The notes: generated from the letters alone by a model not told the origin. A DNA stretch of 46,095 nt from a virus (IMGVR_UViG_2565956709_000007); one strand, 5' to 3'; positions 29,389 through 46,095 are shown, numbered from the stretch's first letter. Made by a program: numbers and translations.

Positions 29389-29392
29389 TGAA

Positions 29393-30255: not shown

Positions 30256-30405
30256 TTCTTGCTCCTCAATCCATTAAAATCTCAGCAATAGTAGTTGTTA
30301 CGTCCGCCACTGGCTCAGAGCTGACTATCCGCTAAATTTAGCTCAGTGCCGTAGTTGTGTCAGAACAAACCTAAGCCGAAACCGTTTATTACAAAACAAT
30401 AAATA

Positions 30406-30834
30406 TCAGGGTTTAAAATCCAGCACCCCATTTTGAAATACTTTATATACTTCCGGCGAAGGGGGGGCAGGTATATCAGCATTCTTTATCGCATTCATCG
30501 CTTCACGACATAAATCGAGGTCTCCACTTTCTCTTTTAACCTCCAGTAGAAGGCCATTCGGGGCCATATGCATTCTCAGTGTACACTCTTTTCCTGAATA
30601 CTTACTCGCATCCCCGAACTGTTTTTCGATGGCGCTCTTGATTTGATGGGCATACAGACGGATATCCTCACTAACATCAGAAGTACGTTCAGATGAACTC
30701 ACATACTGTGTCTCTATTGCTTTATCGGAGTAATATGATGTACGGTCATGATAATTTGTCGATACAGCATCAGTGCACCCGATAATAATCCCACTAATAA
30801 TCAACGTAAGAATTGATGCGCTACGAAAACCCAT
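30406..30834 (-). CDS. Lipoprotein with TolA domain-III-like C-terminal domain
   Basis: Signal peptide with lipobox IIGC; C-terminal HQIKSAIEKQFGDASKYSGKECTLRMHMAPNGLLLEVKRESGDLDLCREAMNAIKNADIPAPPSPEVYKVFQNGVLDFKP closely resembles my recollection of the E. coli TolA C-terminus. Confidence 0.55.
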   Translation of the reverse strand: MGFRSASILTLIISGIIIGCTDAVSTNYHDRTSYYSDKAIETQYVSSSERTSDVSEDIRLYAHQIKSAIEKQFGDASKYSGKECTLRMHMAPNGLLLEVKRESGDLDLCREAMNAIKNADIPAPPSPEVYKVFQNGVLDFKP

Positions 30835-30863
30835 TTTTCCTCACATATGTCATATAGTAAAGG

Positions 30864-30893
30864 ATTATATATACCGTTGTTTTGGACGCTCAA
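30864..30893 (-). promoter_or_regulatory. Candidate sigma70 promoter for the lipoprotein cassette
   Basis: Minus-strand TTGAGC, 18-bp spacer, TATAAT about 30 nt upstream of the ATG at 30834. Confidence 0.35.
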
Positions 30894-31367
30894 ACAGCGA
30901 ATCAGATCAAATAAAACGCACATTTGTTAACATTTACACAAAGTCTGCGTGGGATATTCTGAAAGAATATCCATAATGTGGAGAGAATCTATTGAAGTGC
31001 ATGGTGCCGGGTGCCTCCCGGTGAATTCAGTACCAGCACCTGAATCCGCGATTATCCCATATACCTACTCGCTGATTGCCCCTCCGCACAGGGGGATTCA
31101 CCATGCCAGTTTCTTTTAACAAACTCCCCGCAAACCAGAGAACAGTCAACCGCCTGAATTGTGAAGTATTTAAAAATTTCTCCCGCTAACTGATACCCGG
31201 CTAACAGTCTGGCGTTTTCTTTTTCAGCAACGGGAAAGCAACAACCACCACACCCGCCACCAGCACACCGTCAGCCAGCACTGACATTATCCGGCTGCTG
31301 CAATGCCATTCACAAAAACAGTAAGCAATCACTTTTTACCGTAACAGGTGATAATCCAGATATGTAT

Positions 31368-31721
31368 CTACCCCAGATGAGTAATCCGAAGTTCATCCAT
31401 ACCACAGGTCCTGGCTATTCTGTTGTACTCCTGAACAAGAGCAAATAATTCTGAATTAGCAACCATGAACTCATCGCAAACCCTCTGTATAGCATCACTA
31501 TTCAGAATAATAACGTCTCTTCCCGAAAGACGATCAGGAGTACAAAACAAAACTGTCAAACGGCTGAAGGCCTTTGCTCGTGCTGCATTGACTATATCAA
31601 TACGCTGCCTAAGGATGAAACACCCCGACGCCTCATCAATATTCACTCTACCCACACCATATGAATGATAAATATTTAATGCTGAAAAAACCATTAGACG
31701 GTATAACAAACACTCAATCAA
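31368..31721 (-). CDS. Hypothetical protein (117 codons, poor translation signals; may be a decayed gene)
   Basis: Long ORF in AT-rich DNA downstream of tRNA-Arg; no recognisable family; no clear RBS. Confidence 0.25.
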   Translation of the reverse strand: MIECLLYRLMVFSALNIYHSYGVGRVNIDEASGCFILRQRIDIVNAARAKAFSRLTVLFCTPDRLSGRDVIILNSDAIQRVCDEFMVANSELFALVQEYNRIARTCGMDELRITHLG

Positions 31722-31831
31722 TACTTAACAGAACTTTTATTTTTGACAAACATATAATATTTTCAACAAGATCCTGAGCCAGGTATATTTCAGTATAAGG
31801 CTCTGCCGGAAGGAATCTGGAAGAATGAATA

Positions 31832-31908
31832 TGGCGCGCTGTACTGGATTCGAACCAGTGACCGATTGCTTAGAAGGCAATTGCTCTGTCCGGCTGAGCT
31901 AACAACGC
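31832..31908 (-). tRNA. tRNA-Arg (anticodon UCU)
   Basis: Cloverleaf folded by hand: acceptor GCGTTGT/ACAGCGC, D-arm GCTC..GAGC, anticodon stem ATTGC/GCAAT with loop CTTCTAA, T-arm ACTGG-TTCGAAT-CCAGT, 3' GCCA. Confidence 0.85.
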
Positions 31909-31942
31909 TGAATACCGATAATGGACCGCCATCGGGGACCCG

Positions 31943-31954
31943 CCCCCCCCCCCC
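31943..31954. repeat. Homopolymeric C12 (G12 on the minus strand) tract between the two tRNA genes
   Basis: cgcccccccccccccgcacc read directly. Confidence 0.9.
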
Positions 31955-32015
31955 GCACCAACAACCCTGTTATCGTGTCGTCTGCTCTTCCTGATAAGCT
32001 CATGGCGGTTTGTGA

Positions 32016-32091
32016 TGGTGGCCCTTGCTGGATTTGAACCAGCGACCTGGCGATTATGAGTCGCTCGCTCTCACCACTGAGCTAAAGGACC
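32016..32091 (-). tRNA. tRNA with anticodon CAU (Ile2/ileX-like; Met-type not excluded)
   Basis: GGTCCTTTAGCTCAGTGGTGAGAGCGAGCGACTCATAATCGCCAGGTCGCTGGTTCAAATCCAGCAAGGGCCACCA folds as a cloverleaf and resembles E. coli ileX. Confidence 0.8.
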
Positions 32092-32130
32092 GGGAGCAGA
32101 ATAATAACGGTCCGTAATTAATTCCGCAAT

Positions 32131-32152
32131 AAAAAACCCGCTCGGTGGCGGG
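32131..32152 (-). terminator. tR'-like terminator downstream of the late promoter
   Basis: cccgc-tcggtg-gcggg with an A6 run on the plus strand, between Q and the tRNA genes. Confidence 0.5.
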
Positions 32153-32201
32153 TTGTAGAAACTCTTCTAACGTCAGGTATAAAAAGCCCATCGTTATGAC
32201 G

Positions 32202-32229
32202 AATTTACCACAGATTCCGGAAAAATCAA
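32202..32229 (-). promoter_or_regulatory. Candidate late promoter pR' (with qut expected to overlap)
   Basis: Minus-strand TTGATT, 16-bp spacer, TAAATT immediately downstream of the Q stop. Confidence 0.3.
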
Positions 32230-32234
32230 CCTTG

Positions 32235-33056
32235 TTACCTAGTTACCTTTTTTAACTGCCGCTCAGCCCATGCTTCTTCAATATCAAACCGGGTCACCAG
32301 CGCATCATAGAATTTCTTAACTGTTTTTTCCCATGACGCGCGTGTTATCTGGTTTGTCACCTCGCATATAGCATTAAATGCCTCCGTTGATGGTAGTCTT
32401 TCATAGCCACGACCACCACAACGCTGGCAGTCTCTGATAACAGGCATACCACGTTTTACCGACTCTTCACGGTGAATGGCGACACCACGCCCACGGCAAT
32501 CCTTACAGACGGTGGAAACCTCACCCTTTCCGCCACACTCCGGACAGGCAACTTTTACCACCTCCCTGACTTTTTTCCATTCTTCCCAGTAAGACGGATA
32601 CACACCTTTCGTACACTTTGCCCATACCGGCGGCTTACCATCCGGATACTGGACCTTGTTTGTAAAAACTACGCTTTCAATAAATTTTTCCCCATAGCAA
32701 CAAGGGCACTGCTTTTTACTCGCTGCGCTGCGGGCATAATCCTCAAAAGCGTACGAAGCCATAATGCGCATCACTACCGGTTTTATTTCTGCCGGAAGTT
32801 TTCTCAACGCCGCCACACGATCGCACCGACTGAGTGCATAATCTGCCAGTAATTCTGTTGCCCGCGCCCTGTCATTCATACTGATGCCCATCTTCCCCAG
32901 GAACGCAGAAAACCCCATCTCAGCCCGATTCTGTGTCATGCCCTGCGCGGCCATCACATCAGTGATACTCAGCGCATCTTTTGACGTTGAGGCCGATGCA
33001 TCGGTCAGGCAAGGGGATTTTGGGGAGTAGTATTTCGGTAAATCTTCCAGTTTCAT
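32235..33056 (-). CDS. Putative late antiterminator Q (QuuQ-like, multiple CxxC zinc motifs)
   Basis: 273-aa product with CPCC, CPECGGKG..CKDCRGRG, CQRCGGRG motifs; position immediately upstream of pR'/tR'/tRNAs/lysis genes. Confidence 0.5.
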   Translation of the reverse strand: MKLEDLPKYYSPKSPCLTDASASTSKDALSITDVMAAQGMTQNRAEMGFSAFLGKMGISMNDRARATELLADYALSRCDRVAALRKLPAEIKPVVMRIMASYAFEDYARSAASKKQCPCCYGEKFIESVVFTNKVQYPDGKPPVWAKCTKGVYPSYWEEWKKVREVVKVACPECGGKGEVSTVCKDCRGRGVAIHREESVKRGMPVIRDCQRCGGRGYERLPSTEAFNAICEVTNQITRASWEKTVKKFYDALVTRFDIEEAWAERQLKKVTR

Positions 33057-33427
33057 TTTTTGACCTGCTCTTCATGCATTATGGGGTAAATCTTCACCCC
33101 CAGACGTCCACCAGATACTGGCTGACCACGAACGATATTGATTTCATCAAACTGCTCATCGTCCATTAACACTCCCGCATGCGTCAGCGCATCCAGCGGT
33201 GCTTTCAGGATATTGTCCAGGTCGCGACGACGCTTATCCGGTGGCTCTGCAATCACCTTTATCGCCAGCCTTCCGGACAGGCTTAATTTCAGCCGCTGCT
33301 GGCGAACAATAAGCGCCACAGCACGGCGATAACGCTTTCCCTCCTCCGAGATAAAATATGTGCTGCCACGGCGTCGCCAGTAAGTGTTCACCGTCGGCGG
33401 GTAAGGTAAAACCAAATCTATGAGCAT
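33053..33427 (-). CDS. rusA: Holliday junction resolvase RusA
   Basis: 124-aa product with conserved RRRDLDN and ...D..L..AGV..DD..V... motifs of RusA. Confidence 0.85.
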   Translation of the reverse strand: MLIDLVLPYPPTVNTYWRRRGSTYFISEEGKRYRRAVALIVRQQRLKLSLSGRLAIKVIAEPPDKRRRDLDNILKAPLDALTHAGVLMDDEQFDEINIVRGQPVSGGRLGVKIYPIMHEEQVKK

Positions 33428-33439
33428 CAGTCACCTCTT

Positions 33440-34489
33440 TTACCCAAGCACGCCAGTTGCAAAGGCGTGATCAAGAAAACGAAAAATTAAATCAACCTGA
33501 GAACCATGCTTTTCTTCGAACGCCAGCGGATCCGCATGAAGCTCGTTGTGATGCTCCCGACACAGCGGTAGCGTGAAAATATCGTGAGATTTTGTCCCCA
33601 TTCCGCCCTGACCATGACCAATCAGGTGATGGGGATCGTCGGCTGGCTTACCACAACACGCACACGGCTGTGTCTTCACCCAGCGTGTGTATTTCTCGTT
33701 AACCCAGCGGCGACGTTTAGGTCGTTTCATGAAAGATTCCGGAGACTCAGGATCAACGGCAATGCTGACCACCGTCTTTTCCTGTGGTGGGTTCTGTTGC
33801 TGGTGGGCGTGAGGCAGCGGCGCAAGATTTTTTGTGCGCTGTTTCAGTATGCTGGTGGCGGTCTGCTCTCCCGGTACGATGTCGCTTTCACGGTACATTG
33901 AGCGGATTTTTTCCGCACGCAACCCCAGCGAACGACGTAATACCGCTTCCGGTAGCGCGTCCGCCAGCTGATTGCGGACCGCCCACCAGGATAATTCAGC
34001 CAGAGATAATTCACGCTCCTGCGTACCGCTTATTGCGTGACCGATGACGTCAATCATCCATGCTGACAGGTTTTGATGAGCAAGTTGCTCGAGTGATTCG
34101 GATGTCTGGTCACGCAGCTGGTTGTCGCAGTGCCAGCACAACACCATTGCGCCGGTACCATATCGGTGAATAACGGTTTCGCTGTGATGATAATCGCCGT
34201 GTGGCCACTGGCAGGATTTAATATGGCGCAACAGCCAGTCAGACAATGCACCAGCACCACCAGCAGCACGAATTACCCGTGCGTTACTGAAAAACGGCAG
34301 CAATGTTTTGTCTTCCACCAGCGGCTGGCGAACGGCAGGAACGACCCCGGACGGCATATTACGCATGCTTTTCGGTTCCGGCTCCACCAGTACCCGGGTA
34401 TTGTGGAATACCGGCATGGATTCACGGCCCGGCTTAACGACCACCAGCCCGAGTTCCGGTACCAGAACAGGTCGAAGTAATACCCGCAC
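33440..34489 (-). CDS. DUF968-like protein with C-terminal HNH-type Cys/His motif (YdfU-like); N-terminal start uncertain
   Basis: C-terminal CACCGKPADDPHHLIGHGQGGMGTKSHDIFTLPLCREHHNELH; position next to rusA/Q as ydfU in Qin; family from memory. Confidence 0.5.
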   Translation of the reverse strand: MRVLLRPVLVPELGLVVVKPGRESMPVFHNTRVLVEPEPKSMRNMPSGVVPAVRQPLVEDKTLLPFFSNARVIRAAGGAGALSDWLLRHIKSCQWPHGDYHHSETVIHRYGTGAMVLCWHCDNQLRDQTSESLEQLAHQNLSAWMIDVIGHAISGTQERELSLAELSWWAVRNQLADALPEAVLRRSLGLRAEKIRSMYRESDIVPGEQTATSILKQRTKNLAPLPHAHQQQNPPQEKTVVSIAVDPESPESFMKRPKRRRWVNEKYTRWVKTQPCACCGKPADDPHHLIGHGQGGMGTKSHDIFTLPLCREHHNELHADPLAFEEKHGSQVDLIFRFLDHAFATGVLG

Positions 34490-34490
34490 G

Positions 34491-34769
34491 TTACCTCCAG
34501 ATGCGTTGCTGGAATGTACGGGACGGACGCGGTGGGCGTTCGGAGTAAGGCAATCTGACTGAGATTATCCAGTGACGGTAGTCGAGGCTAAGGGCTTTTT
34601 TAACCTCGTATCCGCGCCTGCGGTAACACTGAATTATCCATTCAGCCTGCTCTTCAGTGCATGGTGGATGCTGGAACCAGTCCGATTTGAATGCATGAAA
34701 ACGCCGTCCGCACCTGCTGGCAAAGACGGCAGAATCATCAGAATTGTGTAATTTGGTATCGTGCGCCAT
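34491..34769 (-). CDS. Hypothetical protein (Rem-like by position); start uncertain
   Basis: ORF directly upstream of the DUF968 gene in another frame; Cys/His-containing; weak RBS. Confidence 0.25.
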   Translation of the reverse strand: MAHDTKLHNSDDSAVFASRCGRRFHAFKSDWFQHPPCTEEQAEWIIQCYRRRGYEVKKALSLDYRHWIISVRLPYSERPPRPSRTFQQRIWR

Positions 34770-35130
34770 CGGTTGTCTCTGCTGGCGCAGCAGGTGCCAG
34801 TTGTTCAGGCTGGCGTATAAAGTATAAATAAACTGGTTCCAGTGTAAAGCCCCTACATTAATGGAATAAAAGTCAAACAACAGATTGTTGGGATAAACAC
34901 AACGCTTATTATTAAAAGCGATTAGATAAATTAAATTTTAATGTTATGCAATTTTACCAGATCACCATAACATCTCGTTTGAAACCACCGAAACAACAAC
35001 CATATCAATATTGATTATGTTAAAGTGAGTAAATATGGAAAACAACAAATCTGCACATTACGCTCCTTTTTTATCTGTGATACTTTTTGTTTTATGCTGT
35101 GTGTGGGCATTATTTTTATAAAAATATTTA

Positions 35131-35158
35131 CAGATAAAATAAACCCGCCGAAGCGGGT
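35131..35158 (-). terminator. Rho-independent terminator of the hok transcript
   Basis: acccgc-cgaa-gcgggt with AT-rich run (U-run on minus); a second perfect 9-bp hairpin ggcgaggga-tttc-tccctcgcc lies at 35201-35222. Confidence 0.5.
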
Positions 35159-35227
35159 TAAGCGCGGGTGCGTTGAGGATGCCTGACACATCAGAGGCGG
35201 CGAGGGATTTCTCCCTCGCCAAGTCTC

Positions 35228-35383
35228 TTACTCCTCAGGTTCGTAGACTGTGAAGACAGCGACCTCCATCTGGCCGGTTCGGATTCGTACCTCGCAGAGG
35301 TCTTTCCTCGTTACCAGTGCCGTCACTATGACGGTTAAACAGATGACGATCAGGGCGATTAACATCGCCTTTTGCTGCTTCAT
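35228..35383 (-). CDS. hok: Hok/Gef-family type I toxin (HokD/RelF-like)
   Basis: 51-aa product MKQQKAMLIALIVICLTVIVTALVTRKDLCEVRIRTGQMEVAVFTVYEPEE; AAGGAG upstream; an in-frame ATG 19 codons further upstream (35440). Confidence 0.8.
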   Translation of the reverse strand: MKQQKAMLIALIVICLTVIVTALVTRKDLCEVRIRTGQMEVAVFTVYEPEE

Positions 35384-35641
35384 AGCCTGCTTCTCCTTGC
35401 CTTTCGGCACGTAAGAGGCTAACCTAGATTTGCCGTTCATAGATTGAGCCTCAGATTAATGTTAAGCGTCTTGCAGGACGCGTAATGTTAACTGGGGCTT
35501 TTCTCTATCTGCCTTTGGTGTTCATGCCTGAGGCAGATAGCCTCAAGCACCCGCAGTCATTCTACTTAACTAAGATTTCCCCGCAAACCGTTTTTGTCCA
35601 GCACAATAAATATCCAACTAAACCAATGGAGTTCGCTGTAT

Positions 35642-35821
35642 TTACCGCCAGTATTCAATGCACATGACCGCCATGAACACCCCTAAAAAAAGGGCATTTA
35701 TATATCCAAATATTAATATCAAAACATCAACTTTTTCCATATACCTTGCTGTGAAGATGATGGGCATACATGATACGAACAACCAGAACGCAACAAACAA
35801 AAACTGCAATGCGTTTTTCAT
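35642..35821 (-). CDS. Hypothetical 59-aa two-TM membrane protein
   Basis: ATG 35821 with AGGAGG 4 nt upstream; hydrophobic product MKNALQFLFVAFWLFVSCMPIIF... Confidence 0.4.
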   Translation of the reverse strand: MKNALQFLFVAFWLFVSCMPIIFTARYMEKVDVLILIFGYINALFLGVFMAVMCIEYWR

Positions 35822-36252
35822 TATTCCTCCTACAATCAATGTGCAATTACATTTAAACACACCTCAATTTGGCCGGACATATAAATATCTAAACTAGAAA
35901 AAATCACTTACATAGCGTTACAAACTCTTTAGTCTAAAGGTTCATCGTAAAACACTCCCCATACTTATCAGTCCGTTCCGCGCCAGGTAGCTTATTGCCT
36001 TATCTGGCAACCTATAATCAGGTTTCCGCTTTTTCAGTTGGCTGGTCGTTTAACCGACATAGTTAACCCATTAATCTAGTTGCCGGATGTTGGTGGATTT
36101 TCGCGTTTTAGTTGTTCATAAAAGTGCACAGCTTTAACCAGTTCTTCTGATGTAACCAGGGCTGGTGAGGCAGTGAATAAGGCCTGAATTTGATAGTTCG
36201 GCCTGTCGTTACAATCCTCTTTTTTCGGTACATATTTCCAGTCAACAGACCA

Positions 36253-36363
36253 CTACTTCTCCTGAAAGTCCGTAACGCCTTTTTTCACGTAGCGATATCG
36301 CCATGCCACTGGTTTTGCTTGCTCCGCCGTTTCATACCCTTCCTGATAATTAATCTCGCTCAT
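36253..36363 (-). CDS. Hypothetical 36-aa protein (not in ORF track)
   Basis: ATG overlaps the upstream gene stop (ATGA); MSEINYQEGYETAEQAKPVAWRYRYVKKGVTDFQEK. Confidence 0.25.
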   Translation of the reverse strand: MSEINYQEGYETAEQAKPVAWRYRYVKKGVTDFQEK

Positions 36364-36536
36364 TCATCGCCCCACTCATCACAATATGCTTCGACCGGAT
36401 TTTTTCCTGCTTCATAATCATCACGCCATGCTTCAGCATCAGCAGCACTGCCACCACGTAACTCTGCATAGTCCATTAACAGTTCATGCCATTTTTCAAA
36501 ACTGACGTTGTATTTAGTTGAACCAAAATCAGCCAT
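36360..36536 (-). CDS. Hypothetical 58-aa acidic protein (not in ORF track)
   Basis: ATG overlaps the 3' end of the upstream gene; MADFGSTKYNVSFEKWHELLMDYAELRGGSAADAEAWRDDYEAGKNPVEAYCDEWGDE. Confidence 0.3.
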   Translation of the reverse strand: MADFGSTKYNVSFEKWHELLMDYAELRGGSAADAEAWRDDYEAGKNPVEAYCDEWGDE

Positions 36537-36711
36537 TTTGCTCTTCCTCTTCGTCTTTTATTTCGTGATATGAGTAATTGCAGTAGTTAAAGAAAATATC
36601 TTTTGCTTCGTCATGTATTTCATCAGGCGTCGCATCAGCATCCACTTCGAATTCATCCTCGAAATCTCCACCAGCCATTCCCGTTTCAATAATTATTTTG
36701 AACTTTCGCAT
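36529..36711 (-). CDS. Hypothetical 60-aa highly acidic protein
   Basis: Track ORF MRKFKIIIETGMAGGDFEDEFEVDADATPDEIHDEAKDIFFNYCNYSYHEIKDEEEEQNG. Confidence 0.3.
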   Translation of the reverse strand: MRKFKIIIETGMAGGDFEDEFEVDADATPDEIHDEAKDIFFNYCNYSYHEIKDEEEEQNG

Positions 36712-36804
36712 TTCACTACCGCCCTTTCGGGTGGCCTCCTGCTGTTCTGAGGGTGCAGAAATCCCTCCGGTTAAGGATTAAATTTTTAACAGTGCTAAAT
36801 TTAA

Positions 36805-37161
36805 TTATTCAGTTTTGGATTTTGTCACCCTGCGTATCCACGCTTTCCCGTTACGCTCAATCTGAATTAGCTTTTCTATATTTTTTCGCCTTTCCCGTTC
36901 CTCCTGGCGCAAGAGCCTTACATCATCTGCCAGTCTGGTTTCTCTTTTCGCCACAGAGAGCATCCAGTCAAATGGCTCCACAACTGCACCGCAGATTTTA
37001 CAGCGGACCTGACGCTCTTTTTCGTCAACCCGGACAGAAGCGTGATGGCAATATGGTCTTTCCGATGGCTCATAAAGAAAATTAACCTGATTACGAGGGT
37101 CATCCTCTTTTATCGGAAATAAAACGATATTGCTTAACTAATCCTCTGGTTTTATTTCCAT
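36805..37161 (-). pseudogene. Zinc-ribbon protein gene interrupted by an in-frame TAG after codon 7 (amber pseudogene, or downstream/non-canonical start)
   Basis: AGGAG-ATG at 37161, MEIKPED, TAG, then 110 open codons encoding ...PYCHHASVRVDEKERQVRCKICGAVVEPFDWMLSVAKRETRLADDVRLLRQEERERRKNIEKLIQ... Confidence 0.3.
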
Positions 37162-37218
37162 GCTCCTCTCCTTTGATGCGAATGCCAGCGGCAATTGAAG
37201 CCTGATAGCTAATTTCAC

Positions 37219-37641
37219 TCACAGTACCGCCTCCTGAAAATTACCCTGATAGAAAGCCAGTACACGCTGCATAGCTTCGCTCTTCCGGCACTCGCGACAG
37301 ATTATATTCAGGCGCCTGTCGTAGCGGCGTATTTCTCCGTCTGGTAATGACCAGATTAGGTCCGGATCAACCGCAGATGGTTTCTTCGGCTTTGCCCTTG
37401 AGAGCTTTTTACGGGCATTTTGCCAGTCCTTACGCGCCTGTTCAGACGGGAATAACCCGTAACCAGAGTTGTATACATCGCCACTGGCAACCAGCTCTCT
37501 GGCCAGAACGCTCATCAGATATCTTGTTGCCCCAGTTTTAGTTTCCAGTTGTCGTAACGTCTCGCGCCCACTTTGGCGTACGAGTTCAACAACCTGCCCT
37601 TTAATTTTTTCCCGCTCTTCTTGTGTAAAAACTTTTGCCAC
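37219..37641 (-). CDS. Hypothetical protein with HTH-like N-terminus and CxxC motif, downstream of the replication initiator
   Basis: 140-aa ORF; no similarity to DnaC/P-type helicase loaders recognised. Confidence 0.4.
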   Translation of the reverse strand: MAKVFTQEEREKIKGQVVELVRQSGRETLRQLETKTGATRYLMSVLARELVASGDVYNSGYGLFPSEQARKDWQNARKKLSRAKPKKPSAVDPDLIWSLPDGEIRRYDRRLNIICRECRKSEAMQRVLAFYQGNFQEAVL

Positions 37642-37681
37642 AAGCCCTCCTGAAAATTACCTCATGACCAGAAATTAACAC

Positions 37682-38752
37682 TTACCCCCTGAAGCCCGGC
37701 GGAATTTCGTTATCCGGTTCAGAAATATGATTCACACAACGCTGGTTGTTCGTGCCGCTTACCGGGAGCAACCAGGGGTTCTCAAAATTCCGGTCCGGTC
37801 CAAAAAACGTCGTCGCTCGCTGAACAAATTCCGTTCCCGTTTTCCCGGTAGCCGCCAAGTATCTTGCGTAACGCCTCACGCCATCCAGCATGGCCTCTGG
37901 TGGCACCCCCTCGCGTAATCTGGCCTTCCAGGCACTGAAAGCGGATTTCTTCGGGTTTGCTCCGGCACGCAACGGGTACTCCCGCCAGACCTGTTCGAAC
38001 ACATCCGGATAATCCACTCGTCCCACAGACTGCCCGGTGTTTTCCGGGACTACCCGATCGGCTTCCCGCTGAATGGCGGAATCGGCTTCGGGCTGCTGCA
38101 GTTGGTGTGATTGCTCCGGCCTTGCGGTCATCACCTGCTGCACAGCGCCCGAATCGGCTTTCAGCGCATACGCTGAATCGGCTTCCGGTGTCGTGCCTGC
38201 TGGCTGACCAAGATTGACGGTCTGAACATCCCCTGCCTGGTTCGTGGCGTTTTTTACGCCATGGACCATAGTGTTTTGATCTTCTTGATCTGTATCTTTA
38301 TCTGTATCTTTATCTGTCGTGACTCGTCGTGACATATGCGTGACATTTCGTGACGCGCCGTGACAATCGCCATTTTGTTCCCGCTTTCTTTCCCTCTCTC
38401 GCTGCGCCCTCTTGCGCTCTGCAGGAGATTTTGCGGTTTGCGAAATATTGCCGTTGTCCTCTTTAAGCACCTGGCGTTTTTCCCATCCAGTGATTAAATC
38501 ACCATCAAGTACCCGCCCCTGCATCGTCTGCAAAATTGAATCAATTACCTCTTCTGTCACGTCGAGCGCACTTGCCAAATCTTCTGTCGTGACCTCAATG
38601 TGACCTCGCGTGACATTTCGTGACGCGCTCACCAGGAGGTGGATATACACTGCCATCACTGTTGCAATTGGCTGCCCTGACACCCTGGCAATTGTTCGCC
38701 ACTTAGGGTCATTTGGCATGTCATGCCATAATCTGAGCCAGGCGTTAGCCAT
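37682..38752 (-). CDS. Replication initiator (O-like) containing the origin iterons
   Basis: ATG 38752 with GAGGTG upstream; two clusters of 10-11-bp spaced CGTGAC repeats inside the coding sequence. Confidence 0.6.
   Translation of the reverse strand: MANAWLRLWHDMPNDPKWRTIARVSGQPIATVMAVYIHLLVSASRNVTRGHIEVTTEDLASALDVTEEVIDSILQTMQGRVLDGDLITGWEKRQVLKEDNGNISQTAKSPAERKRAQRERERKREQNGDCHGASRNVTHMSRRVTTDKDTDKDTDQEDQNTMVHGVKNATNQAGDVQTVNLGQPAGTTPEADSAYALKADSGAVQQVMTARPEQSHQLQQPEADSAIQREADRVVPENTGQSVGRVDYPDVFEQVWREYPLRAGANPKKSAFSAWKARLREGVPPEAMLDGVRRYARYLAATGKTGTEFVQRATTFFGPDRNFENPWLLPVSGTNNQRCVNHISEPDNEIPPGFRG
38317..38364. repeat. Iteron cluster 1 (five CGTGAC repeats at 10-11 bp spacing), preceded by a tandem atctgtatcttt repeat
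   Basis: tgtcgtgactcgtcgtgacatatgcgtgacatttcgtgacgcgccgtgacaa read directly. Confidence 0.6.
38588..38624. repeat. Iteron cluster 2 (four (C)GTGAC repeats; shares the 20-mer cgtgacatttcgtgacgcgc with cluster 1)
   Basis: cgtgacctcaatgtgacctcgcgtgacatttcgtgacgcgc read directly; an inverted copy gtcacg sits about 30 bp upstream. Confidence 0.55.
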
Positions 38753-38823
38753 ACTCACCTCTTTTGATACCGAATCTTTTTACTCACAAATTGCCGGAAG
38801 CGATCCGGTATGAATATTGCGAG

Positions 38824-39249
38824 TCAATGCACAGCCACAATATTTCCTGCAGGGCCACCACGATTCATCTGGTTGAAACCAGCGATCGCCACTGCGACAA
38901 AATCATCAGCGTCTCTCACCAGTCGTTCCCGCGTCTCCACTAGTTCCCGAAAATAGGCTGAGCTATGACTGCGCATTCGGGCCACCAGCAGAGGTGGCAT
39001 TGCTTTTTCGATAGCTGGTAACAACGCCTGAATTTTTTTAACCGCATCAGGGGTGTCTTTCTCCACCCAGCGGAAAATTTTCTGAGTATTGCGAGCCAGG
39101 GCTTCCGGATGGCTGTCGTCATACAGTTCCGGGAACGTCATTCCCAGCTCGAAATACGCTTTGGTAATTTTCGCAGCCGGTACTTTTTCGCCGTCCGGAT
39201 GCGCCCAGGCATTCATCGCCATGCGGATGTGTTCATGCTTGATTTTCAT
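38824..39249 (-). CDS. CII-like / YdaT-family regulator (putative)
   Basis: 141-aa ORF whose ATG overlaps the Cro-like stop; position equals cII/ydaT; family tentative. Confidence 0.4.
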   Translation of the reverse strand: MKIKHEHIRMAMNAWAHPDGEKVPAAKITKAYFELGMTFPELYDDSHPEALARNTQKIFRWVEKDTPDAVKKIQALLPAIEKAMPPLLVARMRSHSSAYFRELVETRERLVRDADDFVAVAIAGFNQMNRGGPAGNIVAVH

Positions 39250-39500
39250 GAATCAACTCCCATCAGCTTTTTCGTAGTAGTTTTATTCCTGCCAATAGTT
39301 AAAATTGCATCGGCAGAAAATAATCCGTTTGATGCAAGAGCGATTTTTTCAGCGTAATTTGTTTCGCCGGTATATTCTGTGCGAGGCAATTTTCCGTTAT
39401 CCATCCATTTATAGATTGCTCTTTGGCTGACACCACAAACGTCGGCCACAACAGCAACGCGAACAGTTTTGATTACATCTTCAAGTGTTTTCTGGTTCAT
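39246..39500 (-). CDS. Cro/DicC-like HTH regulator
   Basis: 84-aa product MNQKTLEDVIKTVRVAVVADVCGVSQRAIYKWMDNGKLP... with HTH; divergent from the repressor; GAGGGTGA upstream. Confidence 0.6.
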   Translation of the reverse strand: MNQKTLEDVIKTVRVAVVADVCGVSQRAIYKWMDNGKLPRTEYTGETNYAEKIALASNGLFSADAILTIGRNKTTTKKLMGVDS

Positions 39501-39512
39501 ATCACCCTCACA

Positions 39513-39555
39513 ATGTGAACTTTGAGTACATGCTATAACAGAACTGACAGTACAT
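39513..39555. promoter_or_regulatory. OR-like operator/promoter region between the cro-like and repressor genes
   Basis: Repeated half-sites AGTACAT (39525-39531, 39549-39555) and near-palindrome ATGTGAACTTTGAGTACAT. Confidence 0.4.
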
Positions 39556-39579
39556 TCAAGAGCGAATATCATTGAACTT

Positions 39580-39999
39580 ATGGTTCATGAAGATAAAGCG
39601 CGTAAAGAGTTCGCCAGTAGGCTTGCGCTAGCCTGTGAAAACGCTGGTTATGAACAACATGGAAGGCAGGCAGAAATTGCCCGTCGAATGAAATTAACAC
39701 CAAAAGCGGTTAGCAAATGGTTTAATGGCGAAACAATTCCTCGCCGGGAGAAATTAAGGGAATTAGCAACACTAATAGGAACAACACCAACCTATCTTTT
39801 GGGAGAGGATACAGAAGAAAGTGGACAGGTACGTTTCTATCAGGAGTTAAATCCAAGACAAAAAATCATCATTGACCTTCTGGACGAGCTCCCTGACAGT
39901 GAGACAGATGAACTTTTAAAAACTCTTGAAGAGAAAAAACAGAAGTACAATGCAATTTACGAAGAGTTAGCACGAAAGAAAAAACAAAAAGCCTCTTAA
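39580..39999 (+). CDS. Immunity repressor, DicA/C2-like XRE-family HTH protein (no LexA-type peptidase domain)
   Basis: 139-aa product with N-terminal HTH (QAEIARRMKLTPKAVSKWFNGETIP) and short C-terminal domain; divergent from cro-like gene. Confidence 0.65.
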   Translation: MVHEDKARKEFASRLALACENAGYEQHGRQAEIARRMKLTPKAVSKWFNGETIPRREKLRELATLIGTTPTYLLGEDTEESGQVRFYQELNPRQKIIIDLLDELPDSETDELLKTLEEKKQKYNAIYEELARKKKQKAS

Positions 40000-40074
40000 A
40001 CCAGCATAAATCCGGTAGCGCCTTCCTCCGGGTTTGTGCTTCACTTTATCCCATCTCATTTTTTTACACACAAA

Positions 40075-40120
40075 ATGTACTAAATGTACTTTACAACAAT
40101 GAACACAAAGTACATTATAT
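40075..40120 (+). promoter_or_regulatory. OL/PL-like promoter with operator half-sites driving the early-left (dicB) operon
   Basis: ATGTACT at 40075-40081 and 40084-40090, inverted AGTACAT at 40109-40115, bracketing candidate -35 TTTACA (40090-40095) and -10 CATTAT (40113-40118). Confidence 0.4.
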
Positions 40121-40296
40121 ACCTGCCACCCACCCCGCCCCACAGAATGCAGGGCAATACTTCGAGTTACCAGGCAGTGGTCAGGGGTTAAGTAGCCAGC
40201 CCGAGGCGTAAGAACATGACGGCAGGGTTCAACTTTAATAACTATGCAGCAGGTTTTTGTTCCGCTACCCCGGCGTTAAGGGGAAATGAGGTCAGC

Positions 40297-40452
40297 ATGG
40301 ATACTATCAATCTTGGCAACAGCGAATCTCTGGTATGTGGCGTGTTCCCCAACCAGGACGGTACGTTCACCGCAATGACGTATACCAAAAGCAAAACGTT
40401 TAAAACCGAAAATGGTGCCCGTCGCTGGCTGGAAAGAAACTCAGGTGAGTGA
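40297..40452 (+). CDS. ydfA: YdfA-like small protein (51 aa)
   Basis: MDTINLGNSESLVCGVFPNQDGTFTAMTYTKSKTFKTENGARRWLERNSGE; GAGG 5 nt upstream; first gene of the dicB-type operon. Confidence 0.55.
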   Translation: MDTINLGNSESLVCGVFPNQDGTFTAMTYTKSKTFKTENGARRWLERNSGE

Positions 40453-40453
40453 T

Positions 40454-41029
40454 ATGGATTTCGACACAATCATGGAAAAGGCTTACGAAGAATACTTCGA
40501 AGGCCTTGCCGAAGGCGAAGAAGCTCTCAGCTTCAGTGAGTTTAAACAGGCACTCAGAATAAGAATGTGCTCTCACAATGACGCGGAGCACAAATATGAG
40601 AAGCAAAATCAGACCGCAGAAAATTTTGTTCTGGAACCCGGAGAAACGCTTTTCAAAATTCCCGTTACGTGCCCCATTTGCGGTTTTACATCAGAAGAAC
40701 TTGACGACTCCTGTAACAATCAGGAAACAACCAAGTATGTCGAAGATGATACCGAGTGCGCACGAAGAACGATTATATCCACGAGTCCAAACTCCAGGGC
40801 CAATAAATCTCACTTTGAGAGGGTGATTAATCCACTCCCCCAAACCAATAAAAAAGATGCCGGAGGACAAAAAACCCAATGGAACAACGGGATATCTGTC
40901 AAAAAAAGACGTTCCATTAAAGACAAACAACGCAGCGCCAACAACTGTAAGCGCTTTATACCAGTAATCAATTTTCATGTTCTTAAGCGGATTTATTGGT
41001 GGTTGCGACATTGCTTAATGAATCCTTAA
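40454..41029 (+). CDS. YdfB/YdfC-like protein as one contiguous 191-aa ORF with a CPICG zinc-ribbon motif
   Basis: ATG 40454 two nt after the ydfA stop; N-terminus MDFDTIMEKAYEEYFEGLAEGEEALSF... Confidence 0.4.
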   Translation: MDFDTIMEKAYEEYFEGLAEGEEALSFSEFKQALRIRMCSHNDAEHKYEKQNQTAENFVLEPGETLFKIPVTCPICGFTSEELDDSCNNQETTKYVEDDTECARRTIISTSPNSRANKSHFERVINPLPQTNKKDAGGQKTQWNNGISVKKRRSIKDKQRSANNCKRFIPVINFHVLKRIYWWLRHCLMNP

Positions 41030-41287
41030 AACTGTGGTGATTTTAAGGATACCACCTCGCCTGACGTGGTTAAAAGCAGGCACACAACACGAAAGCGCAC
41101 GGCGAAGTTCGTCTCACTGTACGGTGTCGTTAAATTTAATTCGACCGTGCGCTTCCGGTTGTGGCAACCCGCAAAATGGCGCGGCGGTAAGTATGGCGGG
41201 GTTATTCCTTCCCCGTTGAGGACACCGGGTTGTCAGGTTGACCATACGCTTAAGTGACAACCCCGCTGCAACGCCCTCTGTTATCAA

Positions 41288-41346
41288 TTTTCTGGTGACG
41301 TTTGGCGGTATCAGTTTTACTCCGTGACTGCTCTGCCGCCCTTTTT
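41288..41346 (+). ncRNA. dicF: DicF small RNA
   Basis: tttctggtgacgtttggcggtatcagttttactccgtgactgctctgccgcccttttt matches my recollection of E. coli DicF, including the 3' terminator hairpin. Confidence 0.8.
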
Positions 41347-41515
41347 AAAGTGAATTTTGTGATGTGGTGAATGCGGCTGAGCGCACGCGGAACAGTTAAA
41401 ACCAAAAACAGTGTTATGGGTGGATTCTCTGTATCCGGCGTTAATTGTTAACTGGTTAACGTCACCTGGAGGCACCAGGCACTGCATCACAAAATTCATT
41501 GTTGAGGACGCGATA

Positions 41516-41704
41516 ATGAAAACGTTATTACCAAACGTTAATACGTCTGAAGGTTGTTTTGAAATTGGTGTCACTATCAGTAACCCAGTATTTACTGAAG
41601 ATGCCATTAACAAGAGAAAACAAGAACGGGAGCTATTAAATAAAATATGCATTGTTTCAATGCTGGCTCGTTTACGTCTGATGCCAAAAGGATGTGCACA
41701 ATGA
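41516..41704 (+). CDS. dicB: Cell division inhibitor DicB
   Basis: 62-aa product MKTLLPNVNTSEGCFEIGVTISNPVFTEDAINKRKQERELLNKICIVSMLARLRLMPKGCAQ; GAGGA upstream. Confidence 0.8.
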   Translation: MKTLLPNVNTSEGCFEIGVTISNPVFTEDAINKRKQERELLNKICIVSMLARLRLMPKGCAQ

Positions 41705-41892
41705 ATTCAGCATTTGTGCTTGTTCTGACAGTTTTTCTTGTTTCCGGAGAGCCAGTTGATATTGCAGTCAGTGTTCACAGGACAATGCAGGAGTGTATGA
41801 CTGCAGCAACCGAACAGAAAATTCCCGGTAACTGTTACCCGGTCGATAAAGTTATTCACCAGGATAATATCGAAATCCCGGCAGGTCTTTAA
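41701..41892 (+). CDS. ydfD: YdfD-like small membrane (lysis-associated) protein
   Basis: 63-aa product MNSAFVLVLTVFLVSGEPVDIAVSVHRTMQECMTAATEQKIPGNCYPVDKVIHQDNIEIPAGL; ATG overlaps the dicB stop. Confidence 0.6.
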   Translation: MNSAFVLVLTVFLVSGEPVDIAVSVHRTMQECMTAATEQKIPGNCYPVDKVIHQDNIEIPAGL

Positions 41893-41984
41893 AACAGTTC
41901 CGTAATAAATATCCGGTTTCATTCTTATATGCCAGCAATGGCAGGGATTTGTTCATCCTTAAATCTGTCATGAGGTTAAAACAA

Positions 41985-44456
41985 ATGAGTAAAGTCTTTA
42001 TTTGCGCCGCTATTCCTGACGAACTGGCAACAAGGGAAGAAGGCGCTGTGGCTGTAGCCACAGCCATTGAAGCTGGCGACGCACGCCGTGCTCGAGCAAA
42101 ATTTCACTGGCAATTCCTGGAACATTATCCGGCTGCTCAGGACTGCGCTTATAAATTTATTGTCTGCGAGGATAAACCTGGCATACCCCGCCCTGCCCTC
42201 GATTCATGGGATGCTGAATATATGCAGGAAAACCGCTGGGATGAGGAGTCTGCTTCTTTTGTCCCGGTTGAGACTGAATCCGATCCGATGAACGTCACTT
42301 TTGACAAGCTGGCCCCTGAAGTACAGAACGCTGTCATGGTTAAGTTCGACACATGTGAAAACATCACCGTTGATATGGTTATTAGCGCACAGGAATTGTT
42401 GCAGGAAGACATGGCAACATTCGACGGACATATCGTTGAAGCGTTGATGAAAATGCCAGAAGTTAACGCCATGTATCCGGAGCTTAAGTTGCACGCCATT
42501 GGGTGGGTTAAGCATAAATGTATTCCTGGTGCTAAATGGCCCGAAATTCAGGCAGAGATGCGCATCTGGAAAAAACGTCGCGAAGGTGAACGCAAGGAAA
42601 CCGGAAAATACACGTCTGTTGTTGATCTCGCCCGCGCCAGAACCAATCAACAGTACAGTGAAAATTCAACAGGAAAAATCAGCCCGGTCATTGCTGCCAT
42701 TCATCGCGAATACAAGCAGACATGGAAAACACTGGATGACGAACTGGCCTACGCTCTCTGGCCTGGTGATGTGGATGCCGGAAACATTGACGGCAGCATC
42801 CATCGCTGGGCAAAAAATGAAGTTATCGACAACGACCGCGAAGACTGGAAGCGTATCTCGGCATCAATGCGCAAACAGCCTGATGCCCTTCGCTACGACC
42901 GCCAAACTATTTTTGGCCTTGTCCGTGAGCGTCCGATCGACATTCACAAAGATCCCGTAGCACTGAACAAATATATCTGCGAATACCTGACGACAAAGGG
43001 CGTGTTTGAGAATGAAGAAACAGACCTGGGCACTGTTGATGTTCTCCAGTCATCAGAAACACAAACTGATGCAGTGGAAACTGAGGTATCTGATATCCCA
43101 AAAAATGAAACCGCGCCGGAAGCTGAACCATCTGTAGAGCGTGAGGGGCCGTTCTATTTCCTCTTCGCAGATAAGGACGGAGAAAAATACGGTCGCGCAA
43201 ACAAACTTTCTGGTCTGGATAAGGCACTGGCTGCTGGCGCCACTGAAATCACAAAAGAAGAATATTTTGCCCGAAAAAATGGCACATACACGGGCTTACC
43301 GCAAAATGTAGATACCGCTGAAGATTCAGAACAACCAGAGCCGATAAAAGTTACCGCTGACGAAGTAAACAAAATTATGCAGGCAGCCAATATCATCCAG
43401 CCTGACGCCGATAAGTTGCTTGCTGCATCACGTGGTGAATTTGTTGAAGGGATTAGTGACCCGAATGATCCGAAATGGGTTAAGGGGATCCAGACCCGCG
43501 ATTCTGTGAACCAGAACCAGCATGAATCGGAACGGAACTACCAAAAAGCGGAACAAAACAGCCCAAATGCGTTACAAAACGAGCCAGAAACGAAACAGCC
43601 TGAATCAGTGGCGCAACAGGAAGTGGAAAAAGTCTGCACCGCCTGCGGTCAGACCGGCGGCGGCAACTGCCCTGATTGTGGCGCGGTAATGGGCGACGCA
43701 ACATACCAGGAAACATTCGATGAAGAGTATCAGGTTGAAGTTCAGGAAGATGATCCGGAGGAAATGGAAGGCGCTGAACATCCACACAAGGAGAACACTG
43801 GCGGCAATCAGCATCACGATAGCGATAATGAAACTGGCGAGACGGCAGATCACTCAATTAAGGTGAACGGTCATCCAGAAATCACATCCACCAGCAGGAC
43901 GTGTGACCATCTAATGATCGACCTTGAAACCATGGGAAAAAATCCTGATGCCCCGATCATCTCAATAGGTGCAATATTTTTCGATCCGCAAACCGGAGAT
44001 ATGGGACCGGAATTTAGTAAGACTATCGATCTGGAAACTGCTGGCGGAGTCATTGATCGGGACACCATTAAATGGTGGCTTAAGCAATCACGCGAAGCGC
44101 AATCTGCCATTATGACCGATGAAATCCCGTTAGATGATGCACTGTTACAATTGCGGGAATTTATCGACGAAAACTCCGGTGAATTTTTTGTTCAGGTCTG
44201 GGGAAATGGAGCCAACTTCGACAACACGATTTTGCGCCGTTCATACGAACGGCAGGGGATCCCCTGCCCGTGGCGTTACTACAACGATCGCGATGTACGC
44301 ACAATCGTTGAGCTGGGGAAAGCCATAGACTTCGATGCCAGAACGGCTATTCCATTCGAAGGTGAGCGCCATAATGCACTTGATGACGCCCGTTACCAGG
44401 CAAAATACGTTTCAGTTATCTGGCAAAAACTGATCCCGAGTCAGGCTGATTCTTAA
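41985..44456 (+). CDS. Large early-left protein (YdfE-like, about 823 aa) with C-terminal DEDDh (DnaQ-like) 3'-5' exonuclease domain
   Basis: C-terminal motifs LMIDLETMG (Exo I), WGNGANFDNTIL (Exo II), HNALDDARYQAKYV (Exo III); central CTACGQTGGGNCPDCG zinc ribbon; acidic linker; GAGG upstream of ATG 41985. Confidence 0.5.
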   Translation: MSKVFICAAIPDELATREEGAVAVATAIEAGDARRARAKFHWQFLEHYPAAQDCAYKFIVCEDKPGIPRPALDSWDAEYMQENRWDEESASFVPVETESDPMNVTFDKLAPEVQNAVMVKFDTCENITVDMVISAQELLQEDMATFDGHIVEALMKMPEVNAMYPELKLHAIGWVKHKCIPGAKWPEIQAEMRIWKKRREGERKETGKYTSVVDLARARTNQQYSENSTGKISPVIAAIHREYKQTWKTLDDELAYALWPGDVDAGNIDGSIHRWAKNEVIDNDREDWKRISASMRKQPDALRYDRQTIFGLVRERPIDIHKDPVALNKYICEYLTTKGVFENEETDLGTVDVLQSSETQTDAVETEVSDIPKNETAPEAEPSVEREGPFYFLFADKDGEKYGRANKLSGLDKALAAGATEITKEEYFARKNGTYTGLPQNVDTAEDSEQPEPIKVTADEVNKIMQAANIIQPDADKLLAASRGEFVEGISDPNDPKWVKGIQTRDSVNQNQHESERNYQKAEQNSPNALQNEPETKQPESVAQQEVEKVCTACGQTGGGNCPDCGAVMGDATYQETFDEEYQVEVQEDDPEEMEGAEHPHKENTGGNQHHDSDNETGETADHSIKVNGHPEITSTSRTCDHLMIDLETMGKNPDAPIISIGAIFFDPQTGDMGPEFSKTIDLETAGGVIDRDTIKWWLKQSREAQSAIMTDEIPLDDALLQLREFIDENSGEFFVQVWGNGANFDNTILRRSYERQGIPCPWRYYNDRDVRTIVELGKAIDFDARTAIPFEGERHNALDDARYQAKYVSVIWQKLIPSQADS

Positions 44457-44528
44457 TGTTCAACTGTCGCCGGTTGTGACTGGTATTCTGCAACCGGCGC
44501 TCGTCTAATGTAAGAGATAAAGAAATCG

Positions 44529-44780
44529 ATGAGCGAAGTAATCATGATTGTCTCTCCCGGCAAATGGGTATCCGAAGAGCAGTTAATTGCGCTGAAAGGA
44601 ATAAAAAAAGGTACGTTAAAAAAGGCCCGGGAAAAATCGTTTATGGAAGGAAGGGAATATAAGCATGTCGCTCATGACGGTATGCCATGGGATAACAGTC
44701 CATGCTTTTACAACCTGGAAGAAATTGATCGCTGGATTGAGCGCCAGGCATCAGCGAGACCAAGACGTCATCTTACTTGA
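44529..44780 (+). CDS. xis: Excisionase (Xis-like)
   Basis: 83-aa basic product with GREY-containing region, immediately upstream of int. Confidence 0.55.
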   Translation: MSEVIMIVSPGKWVSEEQLIALKGIKKGTLKKAREKSFMEGREYKHVAHDGMPWDNSPCFYNLEEIDRWIERQASARPRRHLT

Positions 44781-44799
44781 CTAAAAGCCACACTAACTA

Positions 44800-46095
44800 A
44801 TGAGAGAAGTTGAAATGAAATATCCGACAGGCGTGGAAAACCATGGAGGGAAATTACGTATCTGGTTTGTTTATAAAGGCGTAAGAGTCAGGGAAAACCT
44901 GGGGGTTCCTGACACAGCAAAAAACAGGCGCGTTGCAGGTGAACTACGCTCCTCTGTTTGTTACGCAATAAAAACTGGTGTTTTCGACTATGCAAAACAG
45001 TTTCCCTCCTCACGCAATCTGGAAAAATTTGGTGAGGCCCGACAAGATTTAACCATAAAAGAACTGGCTGAAAAATTTCTGGCACTGAAAGAAACTGAAG
45101 TCGCCAAAACATCACTCAACACATACCGTGCCGTCATCAAAAATATCCTGAGCATAATCGGTGAAAAAAATCTTGCCTCATCGATTAATAAAGAAAAATT
45201 ACTGGAGGTTCGTAAAGAGTTACTGACTGGATACCAGATCCCCAAAAGTAACTATATTGTTACACAACCAGGGAGATCGGCTGTAACTGTAAATAATTAC
45301 ATGACAAATCTTAACGCCGTGTTCCAGTTTGGTGTTGATAACGGTTACCTGGCAGATAATCCGTTTAAGGGGATCTCGCCATTAAAGGAATCAAGAACCA
45401 TTCCGGATCCTCTTTCGCGGGAAGAATTTATCCGTCTTATCGATGCGTGCAGAAATCAGCAAGCAAAAAATTTATGGTGTGTTTCTGTTTATACTGGCGT
45501 TCGCCCTGGTGAGCTGTGTGCACTTGGATGGGAGGACATAGATCTGAAAAATGGAACAATGATGATCAGGAGAAATTTAGCAAAAGACCGTTTCACGGTA
45601 CCAAAAACACAGGCGGGAACCAATCGGGTCATTCATCTTATTAAGCCAGCAATCGACGCTCTCCGGAGTCAGATGACATTAACGAGACTGAGCAAAGAGC
45701 ATATCATTGATGTTCACCTCAGAGAGTATGGCAGAACAGAAAAACAAAAATGCACCTTTGTTTTTCAACCTGAAGTGTCAGCGAGAGTAAAAAATTATGG
45801 TGACCATTTTACCGTTGACTCAATAAGGCAGATGTGGGACGCAGCGATAAAACGTGCCGGACTCCGCCATCGAAAATCATATCAGTCGAGACATACTTAT
45901 GCCTGCTGGTCGCTGACAGCTGGTGCTAACCCGGCATTTATAGCAAACCAGATGGGCCATGCAGATGCGCAAATGGTATTTCAGGTATACGGAAAATGGA
46001 TGTCTGAAAACAATAATGCACAGGTAGCTTTGTTAAATACACAGTTAAGCGAGTTTGCCCCAACCATGCCCCATAACGAAGCAATGAAAAATTAA
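44800..46095 (+). CDS. int: Tyrosine site-specific integrase
   Basis: 431-aa product with catalytic region VRPGELCAL (R), HQSRHTYACW (H-x-x-R), MGHADAQMVFQVYGKW (H...Y); last gene before the window end. Confidence 0.85.
   Translation: MREVEMKYPTGVENHGGKLRIWFVYKGVRVRENLGVPDTAKNRRVAGELRSSVCYAIKTGVFDYAKQFPSSRNLEKFGEARQDLTIKELAEKFLALKETEVAKTSLNTYRAVIKNILSIIGEKNLASSINKEKLLEVRKELLTGYQIPKSNYIVTQPGRSAVTVNNYMTNLNAVFQFGVDNGYLADNPFKGISPLKESRTIPDPLSREEFIRLIDACRNQQAKNLWCVSVYTGVRPGELCALGWEDIDLKNGTMMIRRNLAKDRFTVPKTQAGTNRVIHLIKPAIDALRSQMTLTRLSKEHIIDVHLREYGRTEKQKCTFVFQPEVSARVKNYGDHFTVDSIRQMWDAAIKRAGLRHRKSYQSRHTYACWSLTAGANPAFIANQMGHADAQMVFQVYGKWMSENNNAQVALLNTQLSEFAPTMPHNEAMKN

Follow-up and report, generated by a model that had tools for sequence, protein, structure and literature searches.

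The window analysed here, a 46,095-nucleotide stretch of viral DNA (IMGVR_UViG_2565956709_000007), carries at positions 41288-41892 the sRNA gene dicF and the short coding sequences dicB and ydfD, which very probably represent the dicBF module of a lambdoid prophage of the Qin type that looks complete, the module being situated in a PL-type early-left operon. Along the + strand the order is repressor gene, candidate promoter and operators, ydfA, a shortened ydfB (ydfB'), a 517-bp cassette, dicF, dicB, ydfD, exonuclease, xis and int, with a cro-like gene and a member of the YdaT family pointing away from the repressor gene. A first-pass annotation made from the sequence had assigned the module to the early-left operon, and the co-directional run of genes from just past the repressor gene to exonuclease, xis and int bears this out.

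On the upstream side of the module, ydfA (DUF1391; 40297-40452, +) is identical to its K-12 counterpart at 49 of 51 residues, and the 5' part of ydfB (40454-40555, +) keeps 34 codons as in K-12 and then reads through in frame into the ORF of the cassette, whose end is at 41029. Beyond ydfD lie a full-length exonuclease gene (41985-44456, +), whose K-12 equivalent is the pseudogene ydfE, and the xis (44529-44780, +) and int (44815-46095, +) genes. Window positions 41072-42751 align with K-12 1649162-1650844 at 98.5% identity, and positions 44936-46095 are 99.8% identical to K-12 intQ.

A comparison with E. coli strain 53 gave 99.99% identity over window positions 27339-46095 and about 98.3% over the remainder, and the strain 53 element sits between ydfJ and rspB, which is the Qin site. 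Its annotation lists integrase, excisionase, a full-length 823-aa exonuclease, replication genes, hokD, an antiterminator and tRNAs, and in addition a lysis cassette and genes for terminase, portal, capsid and tail. Strain 53 carries an IS2 between its lysis and terminase regions (window about 27339-27343) that is missing from the window, and by this comparison the window copy of the prophage looks less degraded. Rfam also placed two tRNA genes downstream of the antiterminator gene (31835-32091, -) and an IS009 match of 212.3 bits near the tail-fibre end (3058-3256, -).

The dicBF module

DicF is a 53-nt sRNA at 41289-41341 (+), located by Rfam, by identity with K-12 and by its fold. The RF00039 model matched at 41290-41341 (+) over its full length (1-52) with 76.7 bits against a gathering score of 48 (E 2.6e-15), as the single DicF match in an Rfam scan of the whole window, and K-12 dicF (b1574, 53 nt) has an exact copy at 41289-41341 (53/53 nt). 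The 3' half folds into the expected bulged hairpin (MFE -15.9 kcal/mol) with UUUUU directly after it, as in a terminator and an Hfq-type 3' end, although the z-score of this hairpin, -1.8, is by itself modest. Recognition of DicF in the first-pass annotation was therefore correct, but the length of 58 nt given there was not: the sRNA has 53 nt and is followed by a terminator TTTTT run that continues to 41346. The start given at 41288 is likewise 1 nt too early relative to the K-12 copy.

Folding and alignment with K-12 further revealed a long hairpin upstream of DicF (GAAAGCGCACGGCGA...UCGACCGUGCGCUUCC; 41086-41160, +). K-12 RNase III gives a 190-nt species and RNase E the 53-nt DicF (PMC10448788). 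In the window, the expected 5' end of the 190-nt precursor, ~41152, falls inside the 3' arm of the hairpin and so would fit cleavage by RNase III, making the hairpin a candidate RNase III site from which the precursor may arise. A C/U difference from K-12 within the hairpin preserves pairing. An alignment of window 41060-41530, which takes in all of the sequence between ~41125 and the dicB start, contains one difference from K-12, and the hairpin and the sequence from ~41125 on are as in K-12.

The spacer between DicF and dicB (41342-41515, +) has the same sequence as in K-12. A stretch spanning it (41339-41548, +) also resembles the STnc100 RNA family below threshold, scoring 34.4 bits where the gathering score is 47 (E about 3e-5), and the hairpin CACCNGGAGGCACCNGGCAC, with one compensatory change, is common to both. 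The late region has a full STnc100 match of 114 bits at 30945-31135 (-), downstream of the tRNAs.

Both coding sequences of the module are recognisable as DicB and YdfD, as the first-pass annotation had it, by 100% nucleotide identity with K-12 and by matches to family profiles. The 62-aa dicB product (41516-41704, +) is identical to that of K-12 at 189/189 nt and 62/62 aa and scores 136.8 bits against Pfam PF05358 (cut-off 27) and 132.8 bits against NCBIfam NF049927 (cut-off 100). The 63-aa ydfD product (41701-41892, +) is identical at 192/192 nt and 63/63 aa and scores 91.1 bits against 25 for DUF1482 (Pfam PF07358). The dicB stop and the ydfD ATG overlap (ATGA). Nucleotide alignment with K-12 dicF and dicB thus returned exact identity, and the proposed homology holds. 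After ydfD, a scan found a hairpin with a T-rich tail (41930-41953, +), a putative terminator that would agree qualitatively with the K-12 transcript ending after ydfD (PMC10448788).

The 3' region of DicF pairs with the ftsZ ribosome-binding site (PMC5069750), and xylR, pykA and manX are other mRNAs that it represses (PMC5069750, PMC10448788). As the sRNA sequence is identical to the K-12 copy, these functions should apply here, and transfer from the identical K-12 sRNA supports pairing of the window DicF with the ftsZ ribosome-binding site. DicB brings MinC to the septum and thereby blocks division, and together with MinC it blocks ManYZ, so that phages relying on ManYZ for injection are excluded (PMC6832061; PMC10448788); YdfD binds IspG and causes cell lysis when over-expressed ectopically (PMC8835842). 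The identity of the proteins with those of K-12 similarly supports inhibition of division and of ManYZ by DicB, and IspG-linked lysis by YdfD. The published DicF and DicB functions that the first-pass annotation had invoked would accordingly carry over with the sequences (PMC5069750, PMC6832061, PMC10448788). Its description of the module as one of lysis control needs trimming, in that cell lysis by YdfD has been seen only with ectopic expression, and the prophage has a separate lysis cassette. The host genes ftsZ, minC and manXYZ are outside the window.

Repressor, candidate operators and candidate promoter

Upstream of the operon lies a 139-aa prophage repressor gene (39580-39999, +) whose product has a Pfam HTH_3 domain and is without a peptidase domain. 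The NCBIfam DicA model (NF007257) gave it 56.8 bits, under the cut-off of 101, and the printed sequences of the window repressor and K-12 DicA have no obvious similarity. It is therefore a short HTH repressor of the general kind of DicA, but, judged by sequence, not DicA. Divergent from it is an 84-aa cro-like HTH gene (39246-39500, -; strain 53 annotation, PHROG 35, Pfam HTH_17), whose product is not similar to K-12 DicC. Phage Tritos has a 'CI repressor' of exactly the same sequence (100% identity), and the Tritos repressor gene is transcribed in LF82 lysogens (PMC9928086).

Two pairs of operator-like sites accompany this repressor. The cro/repressor intergenic region contains the 15-mers TGAACTTTGAGTACA (39516-39530) and AGAACTGACAGTACA (39540-39554), 24 bp apart, and past the repressor gene lie the candidate operators TGTACTAAATGTACT (40076-40090) and TGAACACAAAGTACA (40100-40114), again 24 bp apart. 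The second pair, 76-115 bp past the repressor stop, brackets and overlaps a candidate promoter, TTTACA (40090-40095)-17-CATTAT (40113-40118), and together these elements form the putative PL/dicBp analogue (40076-40118, +). All four sites contain a GWAC-N5-GTAC 13-mer, at 39517, 39541, 40077 and 40101, with the 24-bp spacing in both pairs. This pattern has 7 strand-matches in the window compared with 1.3 expected, a number reached in 0 of 100 shuffles, and 5 of the 8 window copies of AGTACAT fall within two short stretches. The candidate promoter matches the sigma-70 type at 9 of 12 positions, and the regional promoter scan that contains it returned 4 sites where 4.2 were expected by chance.

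The sites follow the type of repressor. They are kept in Tritos, with its identical repressor, and in L008, an Escherichia sp. prophage with a 96% identical repressor, and they are missing in L009 and L013, whose repressors are unrelated. The two matching site pairs thus support a classical OR/OL arrangement, in which repressor binding and promoter activity would be predicted, and the operators that the first-pass annotation put at 40075-40115 gain in silico support from the 24-bp pairing and from this co-variation. A further promoter-like sequence, CTGACA-17-TATCAT (39544-39572), ends 7 nt before the repressor ATG (39580), and the operator-like site at 39540-39554 overlaps its -35 hexamer. 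With so short a distance to the ATG, the repressor mRNA may be leaderless or nearly so; lambda cI transcribed from PRM offers a comparison of the same leaderless type.

We also searched for determinants of induction. A tblastn search with K-12 Rem against the window gave a best E of 0.49, with no homolog of the antirepressor, and the window contains no perfect match to the LexA box CTGT-N8-ACAG. A 92-aa hypothetical ORF (34491-34769, -) occupies the same place as K-12 rem, between hokD and the DUF968/ydfU gene; the tblastn search gave no Rem match there, and by position the ORF is an antirepressor candidate for the heteroimmune repressor. The sok antitoxin RNA (Rfam, 111.7 bits) adjoins hokD at 35378-35552 (-).

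Proposed mechanism and alternatives

In K-12, the dicBF transcript starts at dicBp, a PL analogue under DicA repression, and no internal promoter was found (PMC10448788). Following the K-12 experiments, a polycistronic transcript would begin shortly after the repressor gene, cuts by RNase III followed by RNase E would release the 53-nt DicF, and the 3' hairpin and U-run of DicF would act as a leaky terminator, with the read-through RNA encoding DicB and a translationally coupled YdfD. DicF would then act on the ftsZ ribosome-binding site and on the xylR, pykA and manX mRNAs, DicB would act through MinC at the septum and block ManYZ, and YdfD would inhibit IspG, leading to lysis if over-produced. 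For the window, we infer that the 139-aa heteroimmune repressor binds 40076-40090 and 40100-40114 and so shuts the promoter at 40090-40118, such that the module would be made upon derepression or in a small fraction of spontaneously switching cells.

Scans of the intervening DNA detected no terminator-like sites on the + strand from 40118 to 41289. For the 40119-40296 leader, permissive Rfam scans of 39900-42000 returned DicF and the sub-threshold STnc100 likeness only, with no N/nut or put-type antitermination element. A convergent gene (41011 to 40691), which we describe below as a membrane-protein gene, lies between the promoter and dicF and could act by transcription interference. The K-12 transcripts as published, of 1,146 and 1,608 nt with cleavage at 813/814, gave inconsistent start sites when placed on the window coordinates, and we propose neither an exact transcription start nor an exact 3' end.

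Since the convergent gene sits between PL and dicF, it might be thought to insulate the module from PL, and the module would then be driven by an internal promoter upstream of dicF or dicB. An earlier study did propose a promoter upstream of dicB, as noted in PMC10448788, and the upstream context here is unlike that of K-12, with the cassette replacing ydfC. We nevertheless consider such a promoter quite improbable: PMC10448788 found no additional promoters and traced DicF to the processed dicBp transcript, our scan gave zero promoter-like sites on the + strand from 40119 to 41516, and the + frame is open across the cassette and in frame with ydfB, which fits transcription and translation passing through. 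Still less credible, to the point of being extremely unlikely, is the view of the module as an inert remnant that recombination has carried along, of the sort left in a cryptic prophage under decay. K-12 Qin is indeed defective and the same DNA is found in many mosaic contexts, but here the reading frames and the sRNA are all intact and identical to functional K-12 alleles, the surrounding prophage has a full-length exonuclease together with xis, int, replication, lysis, head and tail genes and is free of the IS2 of strain 53, Tritos forms plaques with the same module, and activity has already been demonstrated for the identical K-12 allele.

A different emphasis places the main role of the module in the lysogen, where low-level or stochastic expression would bring about exclusion by DicB of phages that depend on ManYZ, and metabolic tuning by DicF. 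K-12 has about 1% spontaneous dicBp induction and accumulates DicF in stationary phase (PMC10448788), transient dicBF expression protects from lambda (PMC6832061), and 85% of the complete E. coli genomes have kept the module in near-identical form, those with any copy having it at 2 places in the median. The early-left position by exo, xis and int argues instead for co-expression with lytic and excision functions. The lysogenic role, which we regard as conceivable if short of probable, shifts the stress within the same anatomy and does not contradict derepression of an early-left operon, and the sequence separates neither role from the other.

Relation to known systems

The module, its products and their functions are already known, and the module is annotated in at least one deposited functional phage genome. 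The spread of the dicBF module among E. coli prophages has been described previously (PMC5069750). We matched the 605-bp module in 4638 of 5426 complete E. coli genomes, 3779 of them with at least 80% coverage, and in genomes having any copy the median number of places was 2 and the maximum 9.

The K-12 Qin prophage (ydfABC-dicF-dicB-ydfDE, under DicA/DicC control) shares with the window identical dicF, spacer, dicB and ydfD, as well as the gene order, the site downstream of the repressor gene and the chromosomal site on the rspB side. It differs in that the window repressor and cro are unrelated in sequence to DicA and DicC, the operators are other ones and a Rem homolog is absent, and in that a 517-bp cassette stands for ydfC and the 3' end of ydfB. 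Moreover, K-12 Qin is truncated, defective and IS-disrupted, whereas the exonuclease, xis and int of the window are intact.

Among the deposited phages that carry the module, three provide further points of comparison. Tritos, a plaque-forming temperate siphovirus, is prophage 3 of the AIEC strain LF82, from which virions and plaques were made (PMC9928086); it shares the identical repressor and the order DicF (annotated), dicB, ydfD, exonuclease, xis and int, but has K-12-type ydfB and ydfC, is cassette-free, and has an operator one base off (AAAAGTAC versus AAATGTAC). HannyBb matches window 40259-42000 at 99.1%, cassette and module included, but has another repressor, and its DicF, dicB and ydfD are recorded as 'hypothetical'. 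The functional phage mEp460_ev081 carries dicB, dicF, dicAC and rem (PMC10448788), and differs from the window by its K-12-type DicA and Rem.

The Kil protein of lambda and KilR of Rac are small products of the early-left PL operon that, like DicB, block FtsZ-dependent division on derepression. Both are unrelated to DicB in sequence and lack an sRNA partner, and DicB for its part acts through MinC; in L008 and L009, KilR takes the equivalent position.

Here the module belongs to a prophage that looks complete and has a repressor other than DicA, which supports published work that regards dicBF as an ancestral early-left function of phages and not as a relic of K-12. It also shows the module being swapped as one piece among immunity types. 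Within the locus, the antisense cassette next to the module is the only part that might merit further study.

The antisense cassette

Homology with K-12 ends at 40554 and returns at 41072, delimiting a 517-bp cassette (40555-41071) that takes the place of the last ydfB codons and the entire ydfC. We found the cassette in 806 of the 5426 genomes, in almost every case with an identity of at least 99%. Its minus strand has a gene (40691-41011, -) that converges on the early-left operon and encodes a 106-aa three-helix membrane protein bearing the motifs DYWYKA and GLGEWINHP.

Strain 53 leaves this gene unannotated, and the records of HannyBb and mEp390 have their CDS for the same stretch on the other strand. 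Comparison with copies of 84-88% identity revealed that 36 of 54 and 23 of 41 differences fall at third codon positions, and the same differences alter 17 residues in the membrane-gene frame as against 43 in the opposite frame. By this concentration of substitutions at third codon positions, 40691-41011 (-) is a real gene. Its relatives include genes of phage mEp390 and Burkholderia phage Bcep176 (gp33). The protein has 60 homologs of 100-110 aa, none with a Pfam family, and itself has zero matches in Pfam, PHROGs, NCBIfam and PADLOC. An AlphaFold model (pLDDT 83) comprises three long helices and a beta hairpin, and searches of PDB and BFVD with the model returned no fold relatives (best E 0.65 and 0.026, TM below 0.5).

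A first scan of viral contigs recovered near-identical E. coli copies only; six divergent loci came from a second scan, seeded with a distant member. Seven enterobacterial prophage loci have the membrane gene directly after the repressor gene and pointing towards it, irrespective of which type of repressor is present. More distant relatives, with roughly 40% identity, occur outside a prophage context.

The + strand of the cassette has an ORF of its own (40565-41029, +; ATG at 40565, stop at 41029) that, in the window, also shares its frame with the ydfB start at 40454. It wholly contains the membrane gene in a codon-aligned frame, so that TTA, CTA and TCA codons in the membrane gene are stops in the opposite-strand frame. 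We counted these codons in ten phage-borne sequences (window, L008, L009, L010, L013, mEp390, L099, L101, L102 and L103) and compared the counts with a model based on the base composition of each gene. All ten contained 0, compared with 2.5-4.3 expected per gene. Controls fit the model, with 3 observed and 4.6 expected in Bcep176 and with observed/expected counts of 5/5.2, 6/6.4, 14/10.5 and 17/13.5 in non-prophage homologs. The contrast is striking, but as the phage-borne lineages are not fully independent, we give it without a single P value.

Just outside the overlap, the + ORF keeps a CPxCG motif at the amino acid level through synonymous changes, in the versions IPVTCPICGFT, IPVVCPVCGFT, IPTECPICGFV, IPIECPICGFR and KCPRCGCD; in L009 the ORF has a stop directly past CPVC. 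Within the overlap, the protein sequence of the + frame is not conserved. What is kept therefore appears, on this comparative evidence, to be an open + frame and not a protein sequence. We had considered the long ORF (40412-41029) as an artefact of the codon-aligned antisense frame, and dropped this explanation given the CPxCG motif outside the overlap and the lack of TTA, CTA and TCA.

About 15% of E. coli genomes, like the window, thus have the antisense pair on the path from the early-left promoter to dicF, dicB, ydfD, exo, xis and int, with the membrane gene as the member probably expressed in the lysogen. One speculative model, which we think rather doubtful, is that ribosomes must translate through the antisense gene to shield the early-left transcript from Rho-dependent polarity. 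The cassette would then be a switch point, ahead of the toxic DicF/DicB module, at which lysogenic (antisense) and lytic (sense) transcription collide.

Two further features concern the cassette and its relatives. Immediately upstream of the membrane-gene start lies a perfect 10-bp inverted repeat, ATCCTTAAAA-N9-TTTTAAGGAT (41024-41052), whose downstream arm (minus strand) holds the only Shine-Dalgarno-like AAGGA of the membrane gene; the repeat could be an operator or a translational hairpin. In the distant viral contig L102 (IMGVR_UViG_3300004176_000001, 2453-2932), the membrane gene runs in the same direction as two lipoprotein-like ORFs and an HTH ORF resembling a repressor, and the opposite-strand ORF with a CPRCG motif and its open frame is still there. 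The arrangement thus differs with the pair retained, suggesting that the antisense pair travels together.
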